Shown here piece by piece: positions 545 to 23,848 of a DNA stretch of 64,000 nt. Made by a program: the position numbers and the translations under genes. Source of the stretch: Candidatus Aenigmatarchaeota archaeon (GTDB lineage: Archaea; Aenigmatarchaeota; Aenigmatarchaeia; Aenigmatarchaeales; DAIDAN01); the NCBI GenBank assembly GCA_049303335.1, contig JBAQNA010000022.1, positions 1,135 to 65,134 of the forward strand. The letters run 5' to 3'. Position 1 is the first letter of the stretch; each line of letters starts with the position of its first letter. The notes under the pieces were generated by a model. The model ran no database searches, was not told the DNA's origin, and saw only the letters and a program-made list of their open reading frames with translations.

Positions 545-685
545 ATGTTCGGACTTCCTGTCAAATGTCCCGTCTGCAAAATGGAGATAAAGAAGGGAAA
601 AGGAATAAGCCGCTTCGGAAAGGTTTTCTGCTCCGAGGAATGCGCGAAAGAATACGGGAAGCAGCAGGCAAAGAAACAAAAGTAG
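545..685 (+). CDS. small TRASH-type zinc-finger (metal-binding) protein, 46 aa
   Basis: Translates to MFGLPVKCPVCKMEIKKGKGISRFGKVFCSEECAKEYGKQQAKKQK. C-x2-C ... F-C-S-x2-C is the TRASH domain pattern. Below the ORF-track length cut-off. Sits in the copper/redox neighbourhood. Confidence 0.55.
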   Translation: MFGLPVKCPVCKMEIKKGKGISRFGKVFCSEECAKEYGKQQAKKQK

Positions 686-771
686 CCTGCAAATATTTTT
701 TTTCCGAAAACGCCTTTTTATACTCCCGCAGCTGTAACCATTACATTGTTTGTAAAGCTTCTTGTGGTAAA

Positions 772-1212
772 ATGAAAAACACGTCTGCAAAAAAAGGAGG
801 CGGCGCGCAGGGAAAAGCGGTGGCGGGAATGAACGCGGCCGCCGGCGGAGCAAGCATAATAAGCGCGCACAACGTATGCCACGCCGTATGCGAAGGTCTG
901 GTCGGGATTGCCGCGGTTTTCGGGATAACAGGAATGGGAATGCCGCTCGCGTTTCTGACTGATTACAACATTTATTTCTGGGCGATGGCTCTCGCGTTCC
1001 TGCTGATCGGGCTCGCGCTGCTTGTCAGCAAAAGGTGCATATCGAAAAACATGATGATGTTCAACGGCGGAATCGTTTTGGCAGGAGTGCCGTTTGCATT
1101 CCTGTCGCCGGTTCTTCCGGTTTTCTGGGCGGGAGGTTCCGTCTTAATTTTATTTAGCGCATACAGGTTTTTGAAACAGAAAATGTCGAAGAAAAACAAA
1201 AACTCAAGGTGA
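772..1212 (+). CDS. membrane protein with H-x2-C-H-x2-C motif (possible metal-binding); start moved to internal ATG
   Basis: ORF 565..1212 overlaps the TRASH gene at its 5' end; a plausible start is MKNTSAKK at 772. Several TM helices and motif HNVCHAVCEG. Confidence 0.4.
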   Translation: MKNTSAKKGGGAQGKAVAGMNAAAGGASIISAHNVCHAVCEGLVGIAAVFGITGMGMPLAFLTDYNIYFWAMALAFLLIGLALLVSKRCISKNMMMFNGGIVLAGVPFAFLSPVLPVFWAGGSVLILFSAYRFLKQKMSKKNKNSR

Positions 1213-1535
1213 AAAATATGTCAAAAGAAAAATCAAGCAAGAAAATCAGCAAGGAGAACATGCTGCTTTACGTGATTGCCGCAGCGGCGGTCGCCATTCT
1301 CGCGTGGGCTGTTCTAAGCATTCTCGGCACGGGAGTCGGAAGCGCGAATTACAACTACTATCAGCAGGCGAACGCAGGCGGGTGCGGCGACCTGAACGAT
1401 GTCGCGAACGTCCAGCACCTGAGCCATCACCCCTCGCAGTATGCGGACTGCATAAGGCAGGTCTCGCCTGAAATGTTCAAACAGGCCGTCGGAACGGACA
1501 AAAGCGCGTTCATGCAGCAGAACGGGATAACGTAG
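1209..1535 (+). CDS. hypothetical small membrane-anchored protein
   Basis: N-terminal Lys-rich region followed by one TM helix; two Cys; no recognisable domain. Confidence 0.35.
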   Translation: MKNMSKEKSSKKISKENMLLYVIAAAAVAILAWAVLSILGTGVGSANYNYYQQANAGGCGDLNDVANVQHLSHHPSQYADCIRQVSPEMFKQAVGTDKSAFMQQNGIT

Positions 1536-1658
1536 GTTCGGCAATCTGCATGTGATGTTTTATTCGCAAACCAGAAAGGCTTATATACTTGCAAAGCTTT
1601 ACAAATGCTGTAAAGCTTTAAGCAATTATTCTGAATAGAAAAAATTGAAGATGATAAA

Positions 1659-2894
1659 ATGAATTCCATCCGCCACGGATTGAGAAATGTTTACAGGAAA
1701 AAATCAAGAAGCGCTGTTCTCGTGCTTGTTCTGGCTTTGAGCATAAGCGCATTTGTAACGATGACGGCCGTTGACGAGAGCGTAGGCAAGCGGCTGCAGG
1801 ATGTCCAGAAAAACATAGGCACCCAGCTTGAATTGAGACCTGCGGGCTCTTACGGCCTCGCGCATTCGAGCGATGACAAAACTGCGCGATACCTGTCCGC
1901 AGGCCTGGTGGATAATATTAGCGGCAAGGATTTTGTAACTTCCGCCAAAGGCTATCTTTCGATGATGGGAGATTTTGCGGGCGAGCATGTCATTGTAATG
2001 GGAATCGAGCCGAACGCGCAGCTTGCAATATTCGGCGGGACAACAGGAAAAATAATTTCCGGGGAATCTCTAAGCTCATACGGAAAAGATGAGCGCGTGG
2101 TTCTTATCGGGGAGGGGTATGCAAAAAGGCACAATGCAAATATCGGCGACTCCGTAAAGCTGAAGGATTCCGATGTCAGGGTTGTAGGCATTTTTTCAAG
2201 CGACACCAGTTACGGGGACCACGGCATATTCACTCCGCTCGGGACAATGCAGGAAATTTTTAATCTTGAGGGAAAATTGTCATCCATTTTTGTTGACGTG
2301 AATTCAATGAGCAATGTCGGCTCCGCGATAGGGGAAATAAAGAACGCGACTTCGGGCGTGGATATAGTTGACAAAGACAAGGCATCAAGGGAAGTTGTCG
2401 TGGCATCGCTTGGCAGCATACGGGCGTCAAGCAGCATAGGCGCAACCTTCTCGCTTTTAATCGGCTCCGCAATAATATTTTTTATAATGCTGCTTGTAAC
2501 GCGCGAAAGAAAAAAGGAGATAGGAACGCTGAAGGCGATTGGCGCGTCAAACGGCGGAATTTTGAAACAGTTCATGGCGGAAACCATGATAATCGCGCTC
2601 GCGGCCGCCGTTGTCGGCATCATATTCGCAGCGGCCGGAGGAAGCGCAATCTCATCCAAACTTTTTTCTCCCGGAAATATTTTAAGCAACGGGCAAAATA
2701 ACCTGGGAAATCTTGGCGTTTATGCGGGAAGCGTTGATACGTACGCCATGTTGGCCCCGATTTCGTTCAACTTTTCCGCGGCAAATCTTGCGTATGTGTT
2801 TGCAGCGGCTGTCATGCTCAGCATAATAGGGGTGATTTATCCCGCGGCGCAGATATTCAGGATGAATCCATCAGAGGCGTTAAAGCATGGATAA
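1659..2894 (+). CDS. ABC transporter permease, FtsX/MacB-like (N-terminal TM, large extracytoplasmic domain, C-terminal 3-4 TM)
   Basis: Topology and length typical of MacB/FtsX permeases; overlaps the downstream ABC ATPase by 8 nt (operon). Confidence 0.75.
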   Translation: MNSIRHGLRNVYRKKSRSAVLVLVLALSISAFVTMTAVDESVGKRLQDVQKNIGTQLELRPAGSYGLAHSSDDKTARYLSAGLVDNISGKDFVTSAKGYLSMMGDFAGEHVIVMGIEPNAQLAIFGGTTGKIISGESLSSYGKDERVVLIGEGYAKRHNANIGDSVKLKDSDVRVVGIFSSDTSYGDHGIFTPLGTMQEIFNLEGKLSSIFVDVNSMSNVGSAIGEIKNATSGVDIVDKDKASREVVVASLGSIRASSSIGATFSLLIGSAIIFFIMLLVTRERKKEIGTLKAIGASNGGILKQFMAETMIIALAAAVVGIIFAAAGGSAISSKLFSPGNILSNGQNNLGNLGVYAGSVDTYAMLAPISFNFSAANLAYVFAAAVMLSIIGVIYPAAQIFRMNPSEALKHG

Positions 2895-3567
2895 TATTAT
2901 TGATGTCAGGGATGTGACAAAGGAATACGTTTCGGGAGACGGCAAGGCAAAGGTTCTTGACGGAATAACTTTTTCCGTCCCGCGAAGCGGCAAGTTCATA
3001 ACAATAGCGGGGTCGAGCGGAAGCGGAAAAACAACGCTGTTGAGCATGATAGGCGCTTTGGACAAGCCGACTTCGGGGCAGATTTTTATTGAGGGAACCG
3101 ATGTGACAAAAATGGGCGAGAGGCAGCTCACCATGCTGAGAAGGAAAAAAATGGGTTTTGTTTTTCAAACTTTCAACCTTCTTTCAAACCTGACTGCGCT
3201 GGAAAATGTCATGCTTCCGATGGAATATAATCATGCGGATGCGGGCGCTTCCAAGAGCAGGGCGGAGAATCTTTTGAAGGATGTCAAGATGATCCACAAG
3301 GCGGCGCAGTTTCCAAGCAAGCTGAGCGGAGGAGAATCGCAAAGGGTTGCAATCGCCCGCGCCCTGGCGAACGACCCTGATATAATATTGGCTGACGAGC
3401 CCACAGGAAACTTGGATTCCGCCACGGGGAGGGAAATAATTAGCCTGCTGAAAAATTTGGCGCATGAAAAGAACAAGACGGTTATAGTTGTCACGCATGA
3501 CGAGGGGATTATGAATTTATCAGACATCAAATTCCACATAAAAGACGGGAAGATTGCCAAACTCTAA
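2887..3567 (+). CDS. ABC transporter ATP-binding protein (MacB/LolD-like)
   Basis: Walker [10 protein letters not shown], signature [15 protein letters not shown], Walker [13 protein letters not shown]-loop VVTHD. Confidence 0.9.
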
Positions 3568-3596
3568 CGCGATTTAAAACACAAATAATTTATGAG

Positions 3597-4199
3597 ATGA
3601 TTGAATTGAATGTAAATAAAAAAGTTTTTGCATCTGTGATTTTGGTAGGACTTTTTGCCGGCATTGCTGTGTACGCATTGTCAGGCGCAAACAAGATTTC
3701 GGATTCTCCGCCAACAGGCAAGTTCCTGTTCAGCCAAGCGGTCGGGCAGAAAGCCCCCGATTTCAGCTTGGAAGGCATAGACGGAAAAATCACAAAGCTG
3801 AGCGATTACAAAGGAAAAAATGTCGTCCTGTTTTTCAACGAGGGCAGCATGTGCTATCCAGCATGCTGGGACCAGATGGCTGAATTCGGAAATGATGAAA
3901 GATTCAGCAGCAATAATGCAGCAACATTCTCCATATTGGTGGATTCAAAGAGCGAATGGCAGAAAATAATTGCGCAGGTGCCAAAACTTGAGAAAGCAAA
4001 AATTTTGTTTGACACTTCAAAATCAGTGTCAAAATCTTATGATGTCCTCTCGCTATCATCTTCAATGCACCGCGGTTCCTTCCCCGGACACACTTATTTC
4101 ATCATCGACAAGGAAGGCGTCATACGCTACACTTTGGATGACATACAGATGGCAATAAGGAATGACAAGCTGGCTTCTGAGATAGCAAAACTTTCTTAA
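3597..4199 (+). CDS. membrane-anchored thioredoxin-fold redoxin (TlpA/AhpC-TSA-like thiol-disulfide oxidoreductase)
   Basis: N-terminal TM anchor. Motifs KAPDFSLEGIDGK...LSDYKGKNVVLFF and a C-x3-C motif (CYPAC) are typical of the redoxin family. Confidence 0.65.
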   Translation: MIELNVNKKVFASVILVGLFAGIAVYALSGANKISDSPPTGKFLFSQAVGQKAPDFSLEGIDGKITKLSDYKGKNVVLFFNEGSMCYPACWDQMAEFGNDERFSSNNAATFSILVDSKSEWQKIIAQVPKLEKAKILFDTSKSVSKSYDVLSLSSSMHRGSFPGHTYFIIDKEGVIRYTLDDIQMAIRNDKLASEIAKLS

Positions 4200-4210
4200 G
4201 AGTTGATGGC

Positions 4211-5128
4211 ATGGAACTTCTTATCGGGGCATCTTTTATAACATCCTTTATCGCCGGGGTTGCCGCGCTTTTCGCGCCCTGCTGCATAAGCGTTCTGCTG
4301 CCCGCGTATCTTGGCTCGATATTCAGAGAAAAGAAAACCGTCATATTGATGACGTTTGTGTTCTTCCTCGGGTTGCTTGCGGTATTCATGCCTCTGGGTT
4401 TGGGGGCTGCCGCGCTAGGCCAATTTTTTAGCGAGTATCATAATCTGATTTATACAATCGGAAGTTTGTTGCTGCTATCCCTTGGATTGTCATTGCTGCT
4501 TGGCAGGCATTTTTCCCTTCCGTTTTCAATTCATCCGAAAACAAACACCCAGAAAGTACAGAATACAGGCTCGGTTTTCGGGTTGGGGGTTTTTTCCGGG
4601 TTTGCAACGCTCTGCTGCGCCCCAGTTCTGGCCGGGGCTCTTGCCCTGTCTGTGTTGCCCGGCTCCGTTTTATTGGGCGGCCTGTATACGCTTGCCTATG
4701 TCATCGGAATGGTGTCCCCGCTGTTTATCATCGCCTACTTCCTTGACAAGACAGACTTTACAAAGAAATTCATAGCGTTCAGGAAACATTTCTCATATTC
4801 CATTGCAGGAAAGCAGATATCTCTAACGATAGCGGAAATGATAGCAGGCTTTACCTTTCTTTTCATGGGAATCTTAATACTTTATCTTGCCCAAACCAGC
4901 CAGCTTGCCATGGGCGGCGGGGATTACCAAGTAATGTTTAACATTTATATGTCAAATCTGACGGATTCGGTAAACGGATACTTGGGATGGGTTCCGTGGG
5001 AAATATGGGTTGCAATTATTATTGCCGCGCTTGTTTTGATAATTAGGGCCGTTTTTGCCAGGCGGAGGAATGAGTCGAATCAATCTTCTGTAAAGAATCT
5101 GCAAAGTCTCGAAGAAGCTTCCAAATAA
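4211..5128 (+). CDS. ccdA: cytochrome c-type biogenesis / thiol-disulfide transporter CcdA (DsbD family)
   Basis: Multi-pass membrane protein with the paired Cys motifs APCC and TLCCAPVLAG characteristic of CcdA/DsbD; immediately downstream of the redoxin. Confidence 0.7.
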   Translation: MELLIGASFITSFIAGVAALFAPCCISVLLPAYLGSIFREKKTVILMTFVFFLGLLAVFMPLGLGAAALGQFFSEYHNLIYTIGSLLLLSLGLSLLLGRHFSLPFSIHPKTNTQKVQNTGSVFGLGVFSGFATLCCAPVLAGALALSVLPGSVLLGGLYTLAYVIGMVSPLFIIAYFLDKTDFTKKFIAFRKHFSYSIAGKQISLTIAEMIAGFTFLFMGILILYLAQTSQLAMGGGDYQVMFNIYMSNLTDSVNGYLGWVPWEIWVAIIIAALVLIIRAVFARRRNESNQSSVKNLQSLEEASK

Positions 5129-5141
5129 GAAAGAACAAAGA

Positions 5142-5558
5142 TCAGTTTCTGAATCCTTTTGCGCAGTATTTGCAGCAGAATGCAAAGCTCTTGTCGCGAA
5201 TCTTTTTTACAAAGCCGCCCCCGAAAATTTTGCAGCCGCAGTGCGCGCATTGCGTAAGGCTCGGCTCGATTGCAAGCTCAATAAGGCTTGAGAATTTTAC
5301 GAGCATGTTCTTTACAAACTTTTTCCCGGACGGCGTAAGGACGTATGTCTTTTTCTCCCGCGTTCCAGAACTCTCCACTTTAATATAGCCGGCTTTCTTC
5401 AGCCTGTTCAGAAACGGGTAAATCTCGCCGGCGCTTATTCTCTTGTCCAGCTTTCCGCTTAACTCCTTTATCAGCTCGTAGCCGTGCTTCTTTTTTTCGG
5501 ACAGAAGAAGAAGGGCATACAATTTTACAATGTTTGTTATTTTTACACTATCTTGCAT
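5142..5558 (-). CDS. PadR-family transcriptional regulator with C-terminal TRASH metal-binding domain (CopR/CopT-like metal sensor)
   Basis: N-terminal PadR wHTH (LLLSEKKKHGYELIKEL...YPFLNRLKKAGYI). C-terminal CAHCGC...FAFCCKYCAKGF is a TRASH motif. Confidence 0.65.
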   Translation of the reverse strand: MQDSVKITNIVKLYALLLLSEKKKHGYELIKELSGKLDKRISAGEIYPFLNRLKKAGYIKVESSGTREKKTYVLTPSGKKFVKNMLVKFSSLIELAIEPSLTQCAHCGCKIFGGGFVKKIRDKSFAFCCKYCAKGFRN

Positions 5559-5634
5559 AAGGCTTATTAATTCCCGAATGATATAAATATATCATATTTT
5601 GATATATCAAGACATAAAAATAAAAGGTGGTTAG

Positions 5635-5886
5635 ATGAGTTTGAATGCAAAAGCACTCGCCCTGTCTGGGGGAATTGTGTGGGGTTTGACAATATTCGGA
5701 ACAACTTTGCTGTCAACGGCAACGGGATTTGGGAAAGCGATGATGGAAGTGTATGGAAGCATCCATCCGGGATATAGTATAAGCTATGGAGGTGCATTTG
5801 TCGGACTGGCTTATGCGTTTGCCTGCGCTGCCGTGGGGTTGTTCGTTTTCGCAAAAGTCTACAACTATCTGGAAAAAAGATTTTGA
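5635..5886 (+). CDS. small hypothetical membrane protein
   Basis: Two predicted TM helices, Gly/Ala-rich. Confidence 0.35.
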   Translation: MSLNAKALALSGGIVWGLTIFGTTLLSTATGFGKAMMEVYGSIHPGYSISYGGAFVGLAYAFACAAVGLFVFAKVYNYLEKRF

Positions 5887-5953
5887 ATAAACGATTTTTT
5901 TTATTTTTTTCATTTTATCTTTTGTTTTAATCCGTTGCAATCAGGATGGTAAT

Positions 5954-6274
5954 ATGAAAGAAACATGCTGTGATGTGCTTGGAAAGGAACTAAAAGCAGG
6001 AAAGAATTTTTTGACAAACAAGACTGCTTCGGGAGAAAAGTGGATTCCTGCGTTCGTGCAGAAGGTTGACGCGAAAAAATGCATCGGCTGCGGCTCTTGT
6101 GTGAAAGTCTGCCTTGGAAATTGCTATGAACTGAAGGATATATTAATCAACGGAAAGAGGAAAAAGGTCAGCGTTGTCGCGCATCCGGAAAACTGCCTTG
6201 GCGACTGCCATTGCCACAAAGTCTGCCCGATAATCGGCGGGGCAATGGTCTGCATGCCAAAGGAGATAAAGTAG
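5954..6274 (+). CDS. 4Fe-4S ferredoxin-like Cys-rich protein
   Basis: CIGCGSCVKVC...CYE and CLGDCHCHKVCP Cys clusters. Confidence 0.5.
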   Translation: MKETCCDVLGKELKAGKNFLTNKTASGEKWIPAFVQKVDAKKCIGCGSCVKVCLGNCYELKDILINGKRKKVSVVAHPENCLGDCHCHKVCPIIGGAMVCMPKEIK

Positions 6275-6286
6275 CGAAACAAAAAG

Positions 6287-7213
6287 GTGAAAAACATAGC
6301 AATGAAAAATCCGAATTATTGGAAAAGCCATTATGTTGTTGAAACGGATGCGGAAGAAATTGAAAGGAACATCAGGCTAACAAGCTTTAGCTCGGGCGAT
6401 AAAAATTTTGGATTGGTATGTTTTGAAAAGGGCAAGCGTGCTCCTAATATTCTGATTTCACCCGGCTCGGGAGGACATTCGTATGTTTTCGCAGAACTCG
6501 GCTATCTGATGCATAAAAAGGGATACAATGTTTTTATCATGCCAAGACACGGCAGCGCTACCATTAATGAGCTGATGCAACGACATGAAGATGCTCTTGA
6601 ACATATTGCAAATAATTTTAATGAAAATATAGGAGTATTCGCCGAGGGTCTTGGAAGCTATGCAGTTTTTTATTTGGCATTAGCTCATGGCCCGATGAAA
6701 AGCATGGTGCTTCAGAACGGGCCGGCAATACTTACCGAAGATGAATTTCAGAAAGCATTTAGTGAGGGCGGCGGCGCGGCCAGAAGGCGGAAGTTAATTC
6801 TTCCTTTTGCAAAATTTTTGGCAAAAATCTTTCCGAGCCTGCCAGTGCCCATATCGCTGTATCTGGATTACAAGGATCTCATAGACACGAAAGAGGAAAA
6901 CCGGAAATTGGAAACGCGTCTGGTAAAAGAGGGTTATCTTAAAGACCCGGATTTCAACAAGTGGAATGCATTGTCTGCGATTATGTCTCTTGTCCTGACG
7001 CCTCCGCCGAATCCTCTTTCGGAGTTAAAGACGCCCGTGATGTTTATAGTTCCCGCGAGGGGCATATACCCGTCTTACGAAAAAGATTTATTTGGCCGGC
7101 TTCCTGCTGTCAAGAAAAAACTGGCTGAAGTCGACGGAAGCGTTTTTTGGATGGTTTCCCATCCCAAAGAGGCGGCAAAAATAATATGCAAACGGTTTGA
7201 TGAAACGTTGTAA
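6287..7213 (+). CDS. alpha/beta-hydrolase fold protein
   Basis: Length and motif pattern (ILISPGSGGHSYVF, nucleophile-elbow-like GLGSYA) consistent with alpha/beta hydrolases. Confidence 0.45.
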   Translation: MKNIAMKNPNYWKSHYVVETDAEEIERNIRLTSFSSGDKNFGLVCFEKGKRAPNILISPGSGGHSYVFAELGYLMHKKGYNVFIMPRHGSATINELMQRHEDALEHIANNFNENIGVFAEGLGSYAVFYLALAHGPMKSMVLQNGPAILTEDEFQKAFSEGGGAARRRKLILPFAKFLAKIFPSLPVPISLYLDYKDLIDTKEENRKLETRLVKEGYLKDPDFNKWNALSAIMSLVLTPPPNPLSELKTPVMFIVPARGIYPSYEKDLFGRLPAVKKKLAEVDGSVFWMVSHPKEAAKIICKRFDETL

Positions 7214-7224
7214 GGTTGCTAACT

Positions 7225-7740
7225 ATGAAATCGGATAAACCCAAAATCTACGAGCGGCATTACGAAGACAGCGCGCTGATTCCCGCAGGCGCTGCAGAGA
7301 TATTCGCCTTTATAGATGATCATGCCCGCGTCATGTCGCATATGAACAAGCCGTCGTGGATGATGGGCGGCGGGCGAGGTGACATTTCGTTTGACGCCGG
7401 ACACGGCCAAAAGGTCGGTTCCCATATTCGCATGAGCGGCAAGGTCTTTGGGATTACTGTTTTTGTTGATGAAGTTATCACGCGCTATGAGCCGCCTCGC
7501 ATAAAAATCTGGGAGACGGTCGGGATGCCAAACCTTCTGGTCGTTGGTCATTACCGCATGAAAGTCGGGATAGAGCCGCAGGAGGATGAGTCGTTACTGC
7601 GCTTGTCCATAGACTATAATTTGCCGAAGACAAATGCTTGGCTGGGAAAACTGTTCGGCAGGTATTACGCGAAATGGTGCGTACAGCGTGTAATCAAAGA
7701 CACGCGCAGTTATTTTATAAAAAAACAAAAATTAAATTAA
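7225..7740 (+). CDS. SRPBCC (START/polyketide-cyclase-like) family protein
   Basis: About 170 aa with the alternating beta-strand pattern typical of SRPBCC. First ATG at 7225; the ORF track begins with TTG at 7216. Confidence 0.4.
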
Positions 7741-7741
7741 A

Positions 7742-10282
7742 ATGATTATTATGAAAGACCCTGTTTGCGGAATGGATGTTGGCGAGAAGGCGGTAAAGCT
7801 CGTGAAAGGCGGAAAGGCATATTATTTCTGCAGCAACAGTTGCAGGGACAAATTCTTTGGGAAGGGAAAAGATGATGAAAAAATAAATTCCAAATCAAGC
7901 CATAATGATTCCCAAACAAATACGCAAACAAAAAAATTCTCCTGCAACATAACGGGAATGCACTGCGCGAGTTGTGCCCAGAATATTGAAAAGAGACTTA
8001 AGGGTGAAGAAGGCGTGGCGAGCGCGAGCGTGAGCTATTCCGCAGGCAGGGCTTCCGCTGAGTTCGATCCGGAAAAGACGAGCGAGCAAAAGCTTGCCGG
8101 AACGATAAACAGGATGGGTTACAAGGCTTTTTTTGCGGCTCCCGAATCCGGGGGGTTTGCGACAGACCCTGTCTGCGGCATGCGCGTGAGCAAGGCGAAC
8201 TCCATAAAAAAACAGTTTGACGGCAGGATACATTATTTCTGCAGCGAGGAATGCGTGAGAAAGTTCGAGTCCCCGGAGGAGGAATTAAAGAGCATGAAAA
8301 AGCGGGTCATGATAGCCCTTTCAGGAGTGCTGCTGCTTGCAGCGCTTCGTGTAATAGCCATGTTAACTCTTGCTGCGGGGGCTACTCTGATATCATGGGC
8401 GCCAATCCCTTCGCTTCCCTGGTTTACATGGGGATATTGGCTGTTCATACTCACAACACCGATACAGTTCATAGGGGGTTGGACATTCTACAAGGGCGCC
8501 TATAACGCGCTCAAAAACAGGAGCCTGAACATGGACTTTCTTATTGCAATGGGCACTTTGACGGCGTGGACATTCAGCTCGTTCGTGCTTTTCTTCCCCG
8601 GAGTCCTGCCTGTGAAAGAGAGGGATGTTTATTTTGAAGTTTCAGCCGTAATTATAGCGTTCGTGCTTCTTGGAAAATTCATGGAGGACTACATAAAAAA
8701 ACGCACATCCGCGGCGGTGAGAAAGCTTCTTGACCTGCGCCCGAAGACAGCGCGCGTGATGCGCGAGGGAAAAGAGGTTGAGATACTTGCAGAGGAAATC
8801 ATGACAGGCGAAATCGTTGTTGTCCGCCCAGGCGAGAAAATTCCGGTGGATGGCTTGGTGATAGAAGGTGAAAGCTCCGTTGACCAGTCCGTGGTAACAG
8901 GCGAAAGCGTGCCCGTGCTAAAGAAAAAAGGCGACGAGGTAATCGGCGCAACTTTGAACAAGCATGGCATGCTGAAGTTCAAGGCAACAAAGGTCGGCTC
9001 GGAAACTACGCTAATGCAGATAGTTAAAATGGTTGAAGAGGCGCAGGCGTCGAGCGCGCCGATACAGCGGTTGGCTGACAAAGTCTCATCCTATTTTGTG
9101 CCTGCAGTAATCGCGATTGCTCTCGCTTCGTTTTTCGGATGGTGGCTTATCGGCGGAAACTTTACAATGGCAATACTTGCGTTTGTGGCAGTCCTTATAA
9201 TTTCCTGTCCCTGCGCCCTTGGAATAGCAACTCCTGCCGCGCTCATGGTGGGCGTCGGAAAAGGCGCAGAAGCAGGCATACTGATACGCGGCGGGGAATA
9301 TCTTGAGCGGGCGCACAAATTGCAGACAGTTGTTTTCGACAAGACCGGAACGCTTACGAAAGGAAAGCCCGTTCTCACTGATGTGGTTGCCTATAATGTT
9401 TCTGAAAAGGGAGTCCTGCACCTTGCCGCTATCGCCGAGAAAAATTCGGAACATCCTTTGGCGGAGGCGATAGTAAACGGCGCGAAAGAAAAGGGAATAA
9501 AGATAGAGGAGGCGCAGCATTTCAAGGCAATTCCGGGAATGGGAATAGAGGCAAAGTTCGGAAAGATAGAAATCCTTCTTGGAAACAGGAAACTGATGGC
9601 TGACAAAAAAATAAACGCGGAAAAAATCACAGGTGATATGGAAAAGCTTGAGGGTGAGGGAAAGACCGTGATGATTCTCGCGGCGGACAATGTGATTTTG
9701 GGGCTTGTGGCTGTTGCCGACACGCTCAAGGAGCATTCTGCCGAGGCAGTGAAGGAACTTGGCGCAATCGGTATAGAGTCCGTGATGCTCACGGGCGATA
9801 ACGAGCGGACTGCAAATGCGATAGCTGAGCAGGTTGGCATAAAGCGGGTGATAGCAAATGTTCTCCCGCAGGAGAAGCTTGAAGTCATAAAAAAACTCCA
9901 AGCTGAAGGAAAGGTTGTTGCAATGGTCGGCGACGGGATAAACGACGCGCCAGCTCTTGCGCAGGCGGACATCGGGATAGCCATAGGCTCCGGAAGCGAT
10001 GTGGCAAAGGAGACCGGCGGGATAATCCTGATAAAGGACGATTTGAGGGATGTTGTAAAAGGGATAAAGCTCAGCAGGCTGACAATGAAAAAAATAAAGC
10101 AGAATCTTTTTTGGGCGCTCGCTTACAACACCGCGGCGATACCGCTTGCGGCTTTCGGTTTCTTGAATCCGATAATAGCCGCGGCCGCGATGGCGATGAG
10201 CTCGCTTACGGTTGTGATAAATTCCGCGCTCCTGAAAAGGATTAAAATGGAAAAACGGGAGCTTGCAGCGCCGGCGGCATAG
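7742..10282 (+). CDS. copA: copper-translocating P1B-type ATPase CopA with N-terminal TRASH-HMA-TRASH metal-binding domains
   Basis: Two TRASH motifs (DPVCGM...YYFCSNSC and DPVCGM...HYFCSEEC), an HMA motif GMHCASCA, the CPC ion motif ISCPCALG, phosphorylation site DKTGTLT, the HP motif and GDGINDAP. Confidence 0.95.
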
Positions 10283-10294
10283 GAGTGATTAAGC

Positions 10295-11080
10295 ATGGGA
10301 CTCATAGAAGAATATTTCTCCGGCGTGATGGGGCATCATTATACGGCGGTAGGAATTCTTTCTTACGGAATAATTTTTGCAGCGGCAGTTTATCTTGTCT
10401 ACGAATATCTTTTGAAGAGAATCGGCTTCAGGATTGACAGCAAATTCATGCTGTCCCTTGTGCCGTTCATCATATTCGGCGGCATCACGCGGGCGCTGAA
10501 GGACACGAACTTTTATCAGGGATTCTTTTTCATGTCGCCGGGAATATACATAACAATATTTTTCATAACGCTTTTGTCTTTGCTGCTGTCTATAGCCGCG
10601 GAAAAAAGATTCAAAAAACCTTACTGGATTTTCATGCTTGGTATAGGAGGCGCGCTTGTTTTGTTTGACATGATTCAGGTTGCTCTTATAGGGATAGAAA
10701 ATTGGACAGCGGTAGTAATGATTCTTGGCTTGTTTGCAGCTTGGGCTGCTGTTTTTGCAGGCGCGCATTTTCTGCTTCCAAAATTCAGCAAGATAAACGC
10801 GGGAATCGCATTCTCGCATGCTATGGACGCTTCGCAGAATTTTGTCGGCGTTGCCGTTTTCGGGTACTCGGCGCAGATGCCTTTGAATTTTGCCGCGGAA
10901 AGCTTTTTCGGCTCTTGGATAATCTTTCCGATAAAAATAAGCGTTGTGCTTGCCGTGCTGCTGCTCATAGACAAATATTCAAGCGACAAGGAATTCAACA
11001 CATGGCTCAAGCTTGCGATACTGATTCTCGGCTTGCCGATGGGATTCCGCGGAATGCTCAGGGTTGGAATGGGGGTGTGA
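10295..11080 (+). CDS. archaeal multi-pass membrane protein, DUF63-like
   Basis: About 7 TM helices, no catalytic motifs; resembles the archaeal DUF63 family by size and hydropathy. Confidence 0.4.
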   Translation: MGLIEEYFSGVMGHHYTAVGILSYGIIFAAAVYLVYEYLLKRIGFRIDSKFMLSLVPFIIFGGITRALKDTNFYQGFFFMSPGIYITIFFITLLSLLLSIAAEKRFKKPYWIFMLGIGGALVLFDMIQVALIGIENWTAVVMILGLFAAWAAVFAGAHFLLPKFSKINAGIAFSHAMDASQNFVGVAVFGYSAQMPLNFAAESFFGSWIIFPIKISVVLAVLLLIDKYSSDKEFNTWLKLAILILGLPMGFRGMLRVGMGV

Positions 11081-11084
11081 TTGT

Positions 11085-11217
11085 AAACTGCCGGCGTGCT
11101 CTATCCTTTCACCGGTTTCTGCTCAATCCGATAATCGCGGCCGCGGCGATGGCTTTCTCGTCAGTGTCCGTTGTCGGCAACTCCCTTCTCATGAAAAAGT
11201 GGAAACCGAGATTATGA
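11085..11217 (+). pseudogene. frameshifted remnant of a CopA-like P-type ATPase C-terminus
   Basis: Encodes AGVLYPFTG, then after a frame change [33 protein letters not shown]. Compare the intact CopA C-terminus [31 protein letters not shown] at about 10160-10260. The DNA is clearly paralogous. Confidence 0.6.
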
Positions 11218-11269
11218 ACTTTTTTTTGAGTGCGCGATAGATTTAAAAAGTTTTAGGCATTCATTTAAA

Positions 11270-11647
11270 ATGATTTTTATGACTAAACCCCAGAAATTGA
11301 GAAAGATCTTGGCTGAAGCCTATAGAGAACTCGGATATGGAAACCATAAACTGGAAATATTTGGGATCAATGGGCTGCCTGTTGCATCATTTGGAGTGAA
11401 AAGGGATGACATGCTTACTGTTTCTGGAAACATGTCTGCTTTTTATGATGATGCAAAAATAGCAGCACGAAGATTATTGCATCAGGATGCAGAATCTGTT
11501 GCCATAGAAATTGAAGACGGAAGCAGGTATTATGCAAAAATGATCGGAGGCAATAATATTCTTGGAATAGTTTCTGATTTGAAAAGTTTTGACGCTGTTA
11601 AGACCGTCTTGAATAAATATTCTTCGAAATTTATTGGAATCTTGTAG
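11270..11647 (+). CDS. hypothetical protein (possibly roadblock/LC7-like)
   Basis: 125 aa alpha/beta protein; weak resemblance only. Confidence 0.3.
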   Translation: MIFMTKPQKLRKILAEAYRELGYGNHKLEIFGINGLPVASFGVKRDDMLTVSGNMSAFYDDAKIAARRLLHQDAESVAIEIEDGSRYYAKMIGGNNILGIVSDLKSFDAVKTVLNKYSSKFIGIL

Positions 11648-11680
11648 CATATTTAACTTCTTCTTTTACAATATTAATTT

Positions 11681-12754
11681 ATGAGAGACCCTGAATGCGT
11701 TCTCGTGCGGCTCGGAGAGATAGCGCTGAAAAGCCCGCAGGTGCAGAGAAGGATGTTTGGAATGCTTTTGGACAACGTAAAAGCCGCTTTGGATGGGATA
11801 GAATACAAAATGGAGACAAATCCGAACAGAATTTTCATCTATACGAAACAGATTGATGAAGCAATGGAACGGATAAAAAAGATTTTTGGCGTTACATCAG
11901 TATCGCCTTGCTGGACTTGCTTCTCGGGTCTGAACGACATCCGAATGATTGCTTCGGACATGGCTTCCGATGTTTTGAAAATCAGCGAGAAGAATTCTTT
12001 CGCGATTCGCGCGCACCGCGTGGGAAGGCACAAATTTTCTTCAAAAGAGATAGCTGAGGAAGCCGGCGCGGCTGTGAAGCGCGTAACCGGGGCGCGCGTA
12101 GACCTTTCAAACCCCGACAGGGAAATATTCATCGAGGCGCGCTCGCGCAAGACTTATGCATTTGTTGAAAAGATCCCTGCCGTGGGCGGAATGCCAGTCG
12201 GCGTGAGCGGAGGAATAATCTCAATAATTGAAAGTCCGAACGATGTGATAGCATCCTGGCTAATGATGAAGCGCGGCTGCGAAATCATGGCGATAACAGA
12301 TGAAGAAAACATGAAGCTTGCTCAAAAACTGAAAGATTGGGACAAGCAATTGAATATTCTAACTTATGAAAAAAATATTTTGGAAAATTACCTGGCGAAT
12401 ATTCCCAGTGCGAAAAAAACATCTGCACGGAAAATCCTTTTAATAATGCTCGCTTCCCTTGTCGCGGAAAAGGAAGGCGCTCTCGGAATAAGCTCCGGAA
12501 TAGCTTCAGGTGCAAACCTGGGATTTATTGGACAGGTGAATGGAACATCAAGTGTGCCCGTGTACATGCCGCTTCTGCTTTATCCGGAAAAGGAATTGAA
12601 AGAAATTATGAAGATGATAGGGATAAAGGCAAAATCAATAAAAGAAAAACTTCAGGAGATTGATTTGGAAAAAATGAGCGCCGATATTGGAAATACTGCG
12701 GAACAAATGCTTAAATCTCTGAAAGAAGAAAATGTAGAGCATGAGGCAGGATGA
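11681..12754 (+). CDS. ThiI-like tRNA sulfurtransferase (THUMP domain plus adenylation domain with degenerate PP-loop)
   Basis: The N-terminal region looks THUMP-like. It carries VSGGIISIIESPNDVIASWLMMKRGCEI, whereas canonical ThiI has SGGIDSPVAAWLMMKRG. The Asp of SGGIDS is replaced and there is an insertion. Confidence 0.55.
   Translation: MRDPECVLVRLGEIALKSPQVQRRMFGMLLDNVKAALDGIEYKMETNPNRIFIYTKQIDEAMERIKKIFGVTSVSPCWTCFSGLNDIRMIASDMASDVLKISEKNSFAIRAHRVGRHKFSSKEIAEEAGAAVKRVTGARVDLSNPDREIFIEARSRKTYAFVEKIPAVGGMPVGVSGGIISIIESPNDVIASWLMMKRGCEIMAITDEENMKLAQKLKDWDKQLNILTYEKNILENYLANIPSAKKTSARKILLIMLASLVAEKEGALGISSGIASGANLGFIGQVNGTSSVPVYMPLLLYPEKELKEIMKMIGIKAKSIKEKLQEIDLEKMSADIGNTAEQMLKSLKEENVEHEAG

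Positions 12755-21676: not shown

Positions 21677-23848
<2,172 letters not shown>

Follow-up and report, generated by a model that had tools for sequence, protein, structure and literature searches.

The window analysed here is a 64,000-nucleotide (nt) stretch of the genome of a Candidatus Aenigmatarchaeota archaeon (contig JBAQNA010000022.1 of assembly GCA_049303335.1), in which positions 545 to 11217 form a gene cluster of a kind familiar from archaea, read here as an island for copper resistance and, by prediction, for extracytoplasmic thiol repair. This island carries an intact gene for a P1B-1 Cu(I) ATPase, hereafter the resident copA, and ends on its right side with the stub of a second gene of this kind, copA2. 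Genes were taken from open reading frame (ORF) calls, families were assigned by Pfam scans with gathering cut-offs, and comparison loci (L001 to L019) were obtained by CopA- and DUF63-based look-ups.

The left part of the island, on the forward strand, consists of a stand-alone four-cysteine TRASH-like protein of 46 amino acids (aa) (545-685; assigned by its cysteine signature and by alignment), which is a candidate copper chaperone of the CopM type, a MacB-type ABC exporter (1659-3567; permease 1659-2894 and ATPase 2887-3567, with matches to MacB_PCD, FtsX and ABC_tran), a membrane-anchored redoxin of the AhpC/TSA fold (3597-4199; AhpC-TSA 73.7 bits, Redoxin 57.8 bits) and a CcdA/DsbD-type transmembrane thiol-electron transporter (4211-5128; DsbD_TM 39.9 bits). 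The next gene, on the reverse strand, encodes a PadR winged-helix regulator with a C-terminal TRASH motif (5142-5558; PadR 57.6 bits), a candidate copper sensor; it is divergent from the copA-side genes and is conserved in L001, L002 and L009. These copA-side genes, all on the forward strand, start with a run (5635-7740) made of an 83-aa membrane protein (from the ORF call) followed by a 4Fe-4S ferredoxin (5954-6274), an alpha/beta hydrolase (6287-7213) and an SRPBCC protein (7216-7740), the last three being Pfam assignments, and the same order is repeated in L008. The resident copA comes next (7742-10282), and only 12 nt past its end starts a DUF63 membrane protein gene (10295-11080) of the AliA/AliB family, followed by the remains of its native 3' spacer (11081-11091) and by the copA2 stub (11090-11217). 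The redoxin-CcdA pair, the ferredoxin and the ABC exporter named by a first-pass annotation, made from the letters of this DNA, were all borne out by the ORF calls and Pfam families.

The resident CopA shows Pfam matches to YHS (74.6 bits), HMA (50.4 bits), E1-E2_ATPase (205.8 bits) and Hydrolase (137 bits), and its translation holds the motifs that, together with N-terminal metal-binding domains, define P1B-1 Cu(I)/Ag(I) ATPases, namely CPC (fourth transmembrane helix), YN (fifth), MxxSS (last; here AMAMSS) and the phosphorylation site DKTGT. It is 100% identical to a protein that NCBI lists under Candidatus Aenigmatarchaeota. Its homologues are 66-94% identical across DPANN archaea and reach 74% with a Patescibacteria protein, and at the position of the M5-M6 loop all 120 listed homologues read AAFG(F/L)LNP. 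Exact-sequence look-ups of the window's DUF63 and CopA returned no entry.

The stub begins 808 base pairs (bp) past the copA stop codon and comprises 45 codons when frame-corrected: AGVLYPFTGF is read at 11090-11119, then comes a 1-nt deletion, and 32 residues follow in the next frame to 11217. Its product would be the final transmembrane helix, in which the copper-site motif MxxSS lies; a P1B-1 ATPase gene would need a complete ORF with all catalytic domains, whereas here only the M5-M6 loop and the M6 helix are present, the frame is broken and no ATPase sequence lies upstream, so that the stub is a remnant and not a gene. A tblastn search of the CopA C-terminus against the window recovered it with 71% identity over 28 aa (E = 2.5e-7). 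The frame-corrected 45-aa peptide matches CopA C-termini with E-values down to 3e-14 (among 5.8 billion proteins), and the 31-aa in-frame part has 264 matches at E <= 1e-3 among 1.84 billion representatives, many of which are the C-terminal end of proteins of 700-785 aa; in this representative library the matches to the 31-aa part do not exceed 83% identity, and no near-identical full-length donor was found.

The first-pass annotation had placed a frameshifted copy of the last roughly 40 codons of a CopA-like gene about 800 bp downstream of copA, behind the DUF63 gene, which agrees with what was found, and had regarded it as a paralogous copy of the resident 3' end, which does not. Identity between the stub and the 3' end of the resident copA is only 72-83%, and the two differ by an indel in the loop; on these grounds gene conversion from the resident 3' end was rejected. 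The stub has the classical longer loop AAGVLYPFTGFLLNP, also found in CopA fragments of Aenigmarchaeota, Woesearchaeota and Nanoarchaeota. Since it keeps a GVLYPFTGF loop that is lacking in the resident CopA, a second copA of a different subtype was once present, and the suggestion of the same annotation that a second P-type ATPase gene had stood here and lost most of its length is upheld by the identity and subtype of the stub.

ORFs of 42-48 aa that are intact and encode only a CopA tail (GVLYPFTGFLLNP...MAFSSVSVV...) were observed in three other DPANN contigs with no adjoining copA (L010 5998-6129, L011 4474-4605 and L012 4081-4227), one of them 45 nt past a NiFe-hydrogenase large-subunit gene. 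Such stubs recur, though in a search that was built to find them.

Three different junctions of the stub were seen among the compared loci. In the window, DUF63 is followed by 14 nt of its own spacer and then by the 45 codons. In L001 and L002 (CopA 94% identical to that of the window) and in L008 (91%) the order is copA-DUF63-stub-ThiI, with a 124-aa ORF before ThiI in L008 only, and the stub has 25 codons, starts directly after the DUF63 TAG stop and is 60 nt shorter than in the window. In L013 the order is copA-DUF63-MacB-ABC-redoxin-CcdA-stub-126-aa ORF-ThiI; the stub is about 62 codons long (KIKQN..FWALACNTAGIPIVAGILYPFFGFLLNP...), has one frameshift near its start and follows the CcdA stop directly, DUF63 lying 3.7 kb upstream with its native spacer kept. 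Two other arrangements are without a stub: L006 has DUF63 without copA, and L003-L005 have copA without DUF63. Relative to L013, the MacB...CcdA and PadR...copA-DUF63 blocks are swapped in the window (MacB-ABC-redoxin-CcdA-PadR...copA-DUF63-stub).

The 14 nt past the DUF63 stop in the window (11078-11091) are homologous to the DUF63 spacer of L013, which continues into the MacB promoter there as it does in L006, so DUF63 has kept its own 3' flank. A junction inside the last DUF63 codon (GTGATTG read as the 'VI' codons of copA2) was considered and was rejected on account of the native DUF63 3' spacer of L013. All stub-bearing loci have a ThiI-like gene on the right-hand side of the stub, and copA and DUF63 are paired in four lineages (window, L001/L002, L008, L013). 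The three junctions thus show that the left neighbour of the stub varies while the ThiI-like right backbone is constant, and that copA and DUF63 move as a unit.

Codon changes between stub copies carry a further signal. Over 25 codons, the window and L001 stubs differ by 8 synonymous and 2 non-synonymous codon differences (2/0/8 by codon position), which gives a non-synonymous divergence (dN) of 0.045, a synonymous divergence (dS) of 0.60 and a dN/dS of 0.075; this dS is similar to that of the flanking genes between the same two loci (copA 0.60, DUF63 0.64, ThiI 0.70), and random placement of the same number of changes gave so few amino-acid changes at P ~0.0005-0.001. A neutral remnant would show changes spread evenly over the codon positions since its inactivation, with dN/dS near 1, and in comparisons involving the L008 and L013 stubs the three positions do change evenly. 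In the 5' part, 16 codons that take in the window's out-of-frame stretch differ from L013 by 5/1/9 over the codon positions (omega 0.15). Because this out-of-frame stretch is equally biased, the signature appears to be historical and no sign of present translation; it points to stub alleles that diverged as intact copA2 before truncation, and the three junctions are best taken as separate later truncations.

These observations (the identity and subtype of the stub, its three junctions and its substitution pattern) are best accounted for by a copper island with the stub of a copA2 that was trimmed by rearrangement-linked deletions, in separate truncations that came after the alleles had diverged, a reading to which we give a probability of just over two in three. 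In this history the stub would be the dead 3' end of a classical-loop copA2 that formerly stood at the right edge of the island beside the ThiI-like backbone gene and would have been redundant next to the resident YHS-type copA. Deletions tied to rearrangements would have removed some 2.2 kb of copA2, with the left limit of each deletion set by the upstream gene that needed to stay intact, and the truncations would have occurred separately in different lineages, once the copA2 alleles had diverged as working genes. The functions envisaged for the island are equally conditional. By analogy with archaeal CopR, the PadR-TRASH protein may sense Cu(I) and control the divergent copA-side genes, and by analogy with archaeal CopM the 46-aa protein may be a copper chaperone; from its motifs, the YHS-HMA-YHS CopA would export Cu(I). 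Going by their families, CcdA would pass electrons to the membrane redoxin, which would re-reduce surface thiols oxidised by copper, and the MacB-type exporter would be a further module of this thiol-repair part.

Several points weigh against this history. We infer the order of events, and the regulatory and biochemical roles are all taken from domain families only. An intact copA2 beside the ThiI-like gene was not found in L001-L019, which leaves the ancestral arrangement reconstructed; scans of genomes and metagenomes for an intact copA2 at this position gave one locus each, neither informative, and the best Aenigmarchaeota copA2 fragment (P0125) adjoins eIF-1A and is not syntenic. The synteny comparison proposed in the first-pass annotation thus yielded stubs in L001/L002, L008 and L013 and no intact second copA at this position. 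The rate estimates for the stub are small samples of 16-41 codons. Finally, L001 and L008 share one junction and should have been stubs for equally long, and the synonymous divergence of their lineages is about 0.6, yet the 75 nt of the stub have about 4 lineage-specific changes in L001 vs about 12 in L008; taken by itself, 4 against 12 among 16 changes is no significant imbalance, but the L001 count falls below the neutral expectation. The L001 stub thus changes more slowly than neutral decay predicts, so that selection may play a part, or recombination with intact alleles may have refreshed the stub. Given a mosaic identity profile, recombination among co-occurring lineages could contribute to the low L001 count; an intact copA2 in another part of the genome could likewise have been a source of refreshment. 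The odd conservation of the stub is mostly explained by its history, with this one residual inconsistency.

Other explanations were weighed against the deletion history. That the stub resembles CopA by chance, or through a low-complexity alanine run, has a probability next to nil: the most identical stretch of DNA is indeed GC-rich and encodes AAAA, but the alignment with CopA tails runs over 28-35 aa and takes in LNPII, MxxSS, VV.NS and the basic tail, the 10 further residues AGVLYPFTGF in the neighbouring frame equal the family consensus exactly, and the stub is conserved in four other contigs. The similarity extends far past the alanine run, and the refutation that the first-pass annotation had allowed for on this ground failed. 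The model of that annotation, in which DUF63 was inserted into a second P-type ATPase gene or alone replaced most of it, draws on DUF63 being the immediate left neighbour of the stub (window, L001/L002, L008), and on the homology with L006, which is limited to the DUF63 ORF. It is highly improbable given that the L013 stub follows CcdA, with DUF63 and its native spacer far upstream, that DUF63 retains 14 nt of its own spacer in the window, and that no 5' piece of copA2 lies upstream of DUF63, where the resident copA ends. The L013 junction, this spacer and the pairing of copA with DUF63 contradict insertion and support the deletion of most of copA2. An unlikely alternative is that the stub is a landing site, in the manner of entry into tRNA genes, where a mobile island entered by recombination in the 3' end of a resident copA2, so that the right edge of the island in each recipient would carry the tail of that recipient's copA2. 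Junctions that differ between lineages, stubs that diverged as coding sequence, a CopA family shared widely across DPANN and with Patescibacteria, and the IS200-type Y1 transposase upstream of copA in L003-L005 would all suit it. So would the divergence from L013, where island genes are less diverged (dS of 0.31 for MacB, 0.51 for DUF63 and 0.82 for CcdA) than ThiI (1.33). No integrase gene or matching left-end repeat was seen, in a window that starts inside the island; the identity between the resident copA 3' end and the stub is too low for a recent crossover site, and the different block order in the window and L013 fits internal rearrangement better than repeated integration. The lower dS of the island and the CopA family shared across DPANN and Patescibacteria suggest horizontal exchange of the island or of its genes.

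It may also be asked whether the stub is under selection at present, as a small membrane peptide (for instance MAFSSVSVVGNSLLMKKWKPRL, 22 aa) or as an extension of DUF63 by a -1 frameshift at the G-run before its stop, with a product that would act on CopA or AliA like the small peptides that regulate P-type ATPases. In favour of this are the low dN/dS between the window and L001 at a dS equal to that of flanking genes, the L001 stub that has barely decayed though its junction is common with the decayed one of L008, the stub frame that is -1 relative to DUF63 in all copies with a GGGG(G) run before the stop, the ATG of MxxSS kept in the window, L001/L002 and L013, the 60-nt difference between junctions, a multiple of three, and the intact CopA-tail ORFs of other DPANN contigs. 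An independent small ORF was nevertheless rejected, as no start codon is conserved across the copies (L008 has none before MKKWK), and so was a programmed frameshift: the reading frames are in the right relation for it, yet a canonical slippery heptamer (X XXY YYZ) is absent (L001 reads ATC GGG G, without the G5 run). As a 22-aa peptide is too short for a membrane span, the L008 and L013 stubs change evenly over codon positions and the coding-like signature extends to the out-of-frame stretch of the window, present selection is very unlikely. A broader form, in which the last-helix stub was kept for use, either as a micro-peptide or frameshift extension with the copper-binding MxxSS helix or as a homology arm for the exchange of islands among DPANN, appears distinctly unlikely too; if true, it would explain the near-only synonymous change between the window and L001 copies, how the stub has survived in highly compact genomes while abutting three different genes on its upstream side, and the recurring CopA-tail ORFs in unrelated DPANN contigs.

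The cysteine modules of the island were compared using the TRASH signature C-X2-C-X19-22-C-X3-C (Ettema 2003). The PadR C-terminus reads C-X2-C-X20-C-X3-C and scores 21.1 bits with Arc_trans_TRASH and 20.3 bits with TRASH_HVO_1752_C, both under the cut-off of 27. The 46-aa protein reads C-X2-C-X17-C-X3-C with an FCSEEC motif, a spacer 2 residues below the published range; in the Pfam scan it was without a match to any TRASH model, and its scores with YHS (16.5 bits), zf-FLZ (20.1 bits) and the prokaryotic metallothionein family (22.2 bits) are all sub-threshold. Its residues C11/F28/C29/C33 line up with both the CopA modules and the C-terminus of PadR, and a homologue of 43 aa, 74% identical, is found in L001. 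The N-terminal modules of CopA, which the first-pass annotation had read as TRASH-HMA-TRASH, are instead YHS (PF04945; 74.6 bits over two stretches, cut-off 30.3), giving YHS-HMA-YHS; both carry DPVCGM and three cysteines and flank the HMA domain, and the strict TRASH model reaches 26.5 bits on them, under its cut-off of 27. YHS is related to TRASH, yet the CopA modules are not TRASH in the strict sense. Since the 46-aa protein, the PadR C-terminus and the two CopA modules share their C/F-C/C columns in the alignment, the idea of a single fold put to three uses holds. Of the three uses of TRASH that had been claimed, the single fold in three contexts of a copper/thiol homeostasis island therefore stands in this TRASH/YHS form; the TRASH label does not stand for the ATPase modules, which are YHS. 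In the hidden Markov model check proposed for TRASH, no score above cut-off was obtained for the PadR and 46-aa proteins, which carry the cysteine signatures given above.

The first YHS module (7742-7925) is present in the window, L008 and L009; DNA homology with L001 and L003 begins at 7926, and CopA relatives of 92-94% identity are without this module, their N-terminus being the HMA domain. The copA and ThiI-like genes are 86% identical over their first 21 nt (7749-7769, ATGAAAGACCCTGTTTGCG, and 11679-11699, ATGAGAGACCCTGAATGCG), a likeness that is probably due to chance as it is not conserved in L001. The IS200/IS605-type Y1 transposase of the relatives that are without DUF63 and the stub lies directly upstream of copA (L003 5247-5696, L004 1355-1804).

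The DUF63 gene matches PF01889, now named AliA_AliB (formerly DUF63; arCOG02177), with 160.6 bits over residues 11-261 (profile positions 14-269 of 269). AliA and AliB are archaeal lipoprotein-lipidation components described in Haloferax, and PMC12462473 reports the family in DPANN. The window protein, by its full-length family match, is a member of this family with a predicted role in lipoprotein lipidation. Its gene differs from those described by lying inside a copper/thiol island, here and in L013, L014 and L016, a linkage not found in the available portion of PMC12462473. The more distant homologues (53-59% identical; L014 4194-8232, L016 4538-8786) were observed amid copper/thiol genes, with DUF411, DsbA-like, cysteine-desulfurase-like and copA genes as neighbours, so the linkage of AliA with copper genes is older than this island. 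In L008, the locus of the most decayed stub, DUF63 has an extra G in a G-run about 12 codons in (~5385) that shifts the frame, and is either a real pseudogene or an assembly error.

Two copies of an operator-like palindrome, TTACA-N5-TGTAA, lie in the window at 741-755 and at 1599-1613, the latter beside a TATA-like AAGGCTTATATAC where the MacB promoter would lie; these are the 2 matches in 64 kb (0.02 expected), and both are between called island genes. The motif also occurs in L001 (1358, 3121, 4035), L013 (1394), L006 (4272), L009 (7430) and L016 (2656), upstream of MacB in L001 and L013; in L001 it also precedes a BlaI-like gene, and in L006 it follows DUF63. The window begins with the C-terminal part of an M48 (BlaR1-like) membrane metalloprotease on the forward strand, cut by the window start (38-526; Peptidase_M48 37.3 bits), whose homologue in L001 (2325-2839) is preceded by a gene of the Penicillinase_R (BlaI/CopY) family. 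The 'cop box' of Enterococcus hirae CopY is TACAnnTGTA, and BlaI/MecI/CopY repressors go with BlaR1-type M48/M56 sensor proteases. The likeness to these systems lies in the Penicillinase_R and M48 genes at the left end of the L001 island and beside copA in L014, and in the TACA/TGTA half-sites of the intergenic and promoter regions of the island; the differences are half-sites 5 nt apart instead of 2 and a repressor gene outside the window. TTACA-N5-TGTAA is probably the operator of a BlaI/CopY-family repressor, which with its M48 partner would probably control the MacB-redoxin-CcdA module. In the divergent spacer between PadR and the 83-aa gene (5581-5609), the AT-rich palindromes GATATAAATATATC and TGATATATCA were noted as candidate PadR-TRASH operators.

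To the right of the stub, a run of eight T (11220-11227, forward strand, read from the sequence) just past its stop codon is oligo-T, terminator-like for archaea, and may be a terminator. The right-hand backbone (11270-12754, forward strand) comprises a 125-aa ORF (11270-11647), without a Pfam match, and the ThiI/THUMP-like gene (11681-12754; Pfam). The 125-aa ORF is very fast-evolving, with homologues 27-44% identical (L008 6272-6646, L013 5295-5675); it is missing in L001 and has only 63 aa in L003 (12236-12427). An Rfam scan of the region gave nothing at gathering score. Further along the window, an archaeal rRNA operon was observed at 21.7-28 kb, in which the small-subunit match (21677-23664) is 1988 nt long vs 1478 nt for the model, the large-subunit match being near model length; the 16S gene therefore seems to contain some 500 nt of extra sequence, either an insertion or an intron.

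Copper-tolerance thiol systems combine a DsbD/CcdA membrane reductant conduit with thioredoxin-fold proteins, e.g. Salmonella ScsABCD. The island resembles them in a CcdA-type transporter paired with an extracytoplasmic redoxin in a copper locus, and differs in being archaeal, in the AhpC/TSA fold of the redoxin and in having no ScsA, ScsC or ScsD homologue, the function here being a prediction from protein families. In the archaeal cop paradigm, CopR is a helix-turn-helix (HTH) protein with TRASH, CopM a TRASH chaperone and CopA the pump (PMC7830388), and the original proposals for TRASH already covered transporters as well as sensors and chaperones (Ettema 2003/2006, cited through PMC7830388). 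The island shares three things with the cop clusters of Saccharolobus, Thermococcus and Pyrococcus: a regulator with a TRASH motif whose gene points away from those on the copA side, a Cu(I) P1B-ATPase, and a small TRASH-type protein that stands alone. It differs in a PadR DNA-binding domain in place of the Lrp-like HTH of CopR (CopR/CopT system), a pairing of PadR with TRASH that was not found in the literature searched, in the shorter X17 spacer of the candidate chaperone, in ATPase modules that are YHS and not strict TRASH, and in the extra MacB, redoxin-CcdA, ferredoxin, hydrolase, SRPBCC and AliA genes. The stub, for its part, is like the deletion stubs that redundant paralogues or xenologues leave in streamlined genomes, being a frameshifted and startless 3' fragment that abuts its neighbour, and departs from them in that the stub alleles of two lineages differ almost only synonymously.

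The cluster is thus a variant of the known archaeal TRASH-based copper locus and the stub probably a relic of ordinary genome turnover, and the current understanding of copper homeostasis is left unchanged. For annotation, the stub is a caution that a low dN/dS of a fragment need not imply function, since an out-of-frame part shows the same signature. The island provides a DPANN case of archaeal TRASH-based copper defence, with a PadR regulator, a predicted thiol-repair module and AliA linked to copper genes. The stub and its three junctions would record how a small symbiont-type genome swapped copper pumps and then trimmed the redundant one, and exchange of pump genes seems to be widespread in DPANN archaea.

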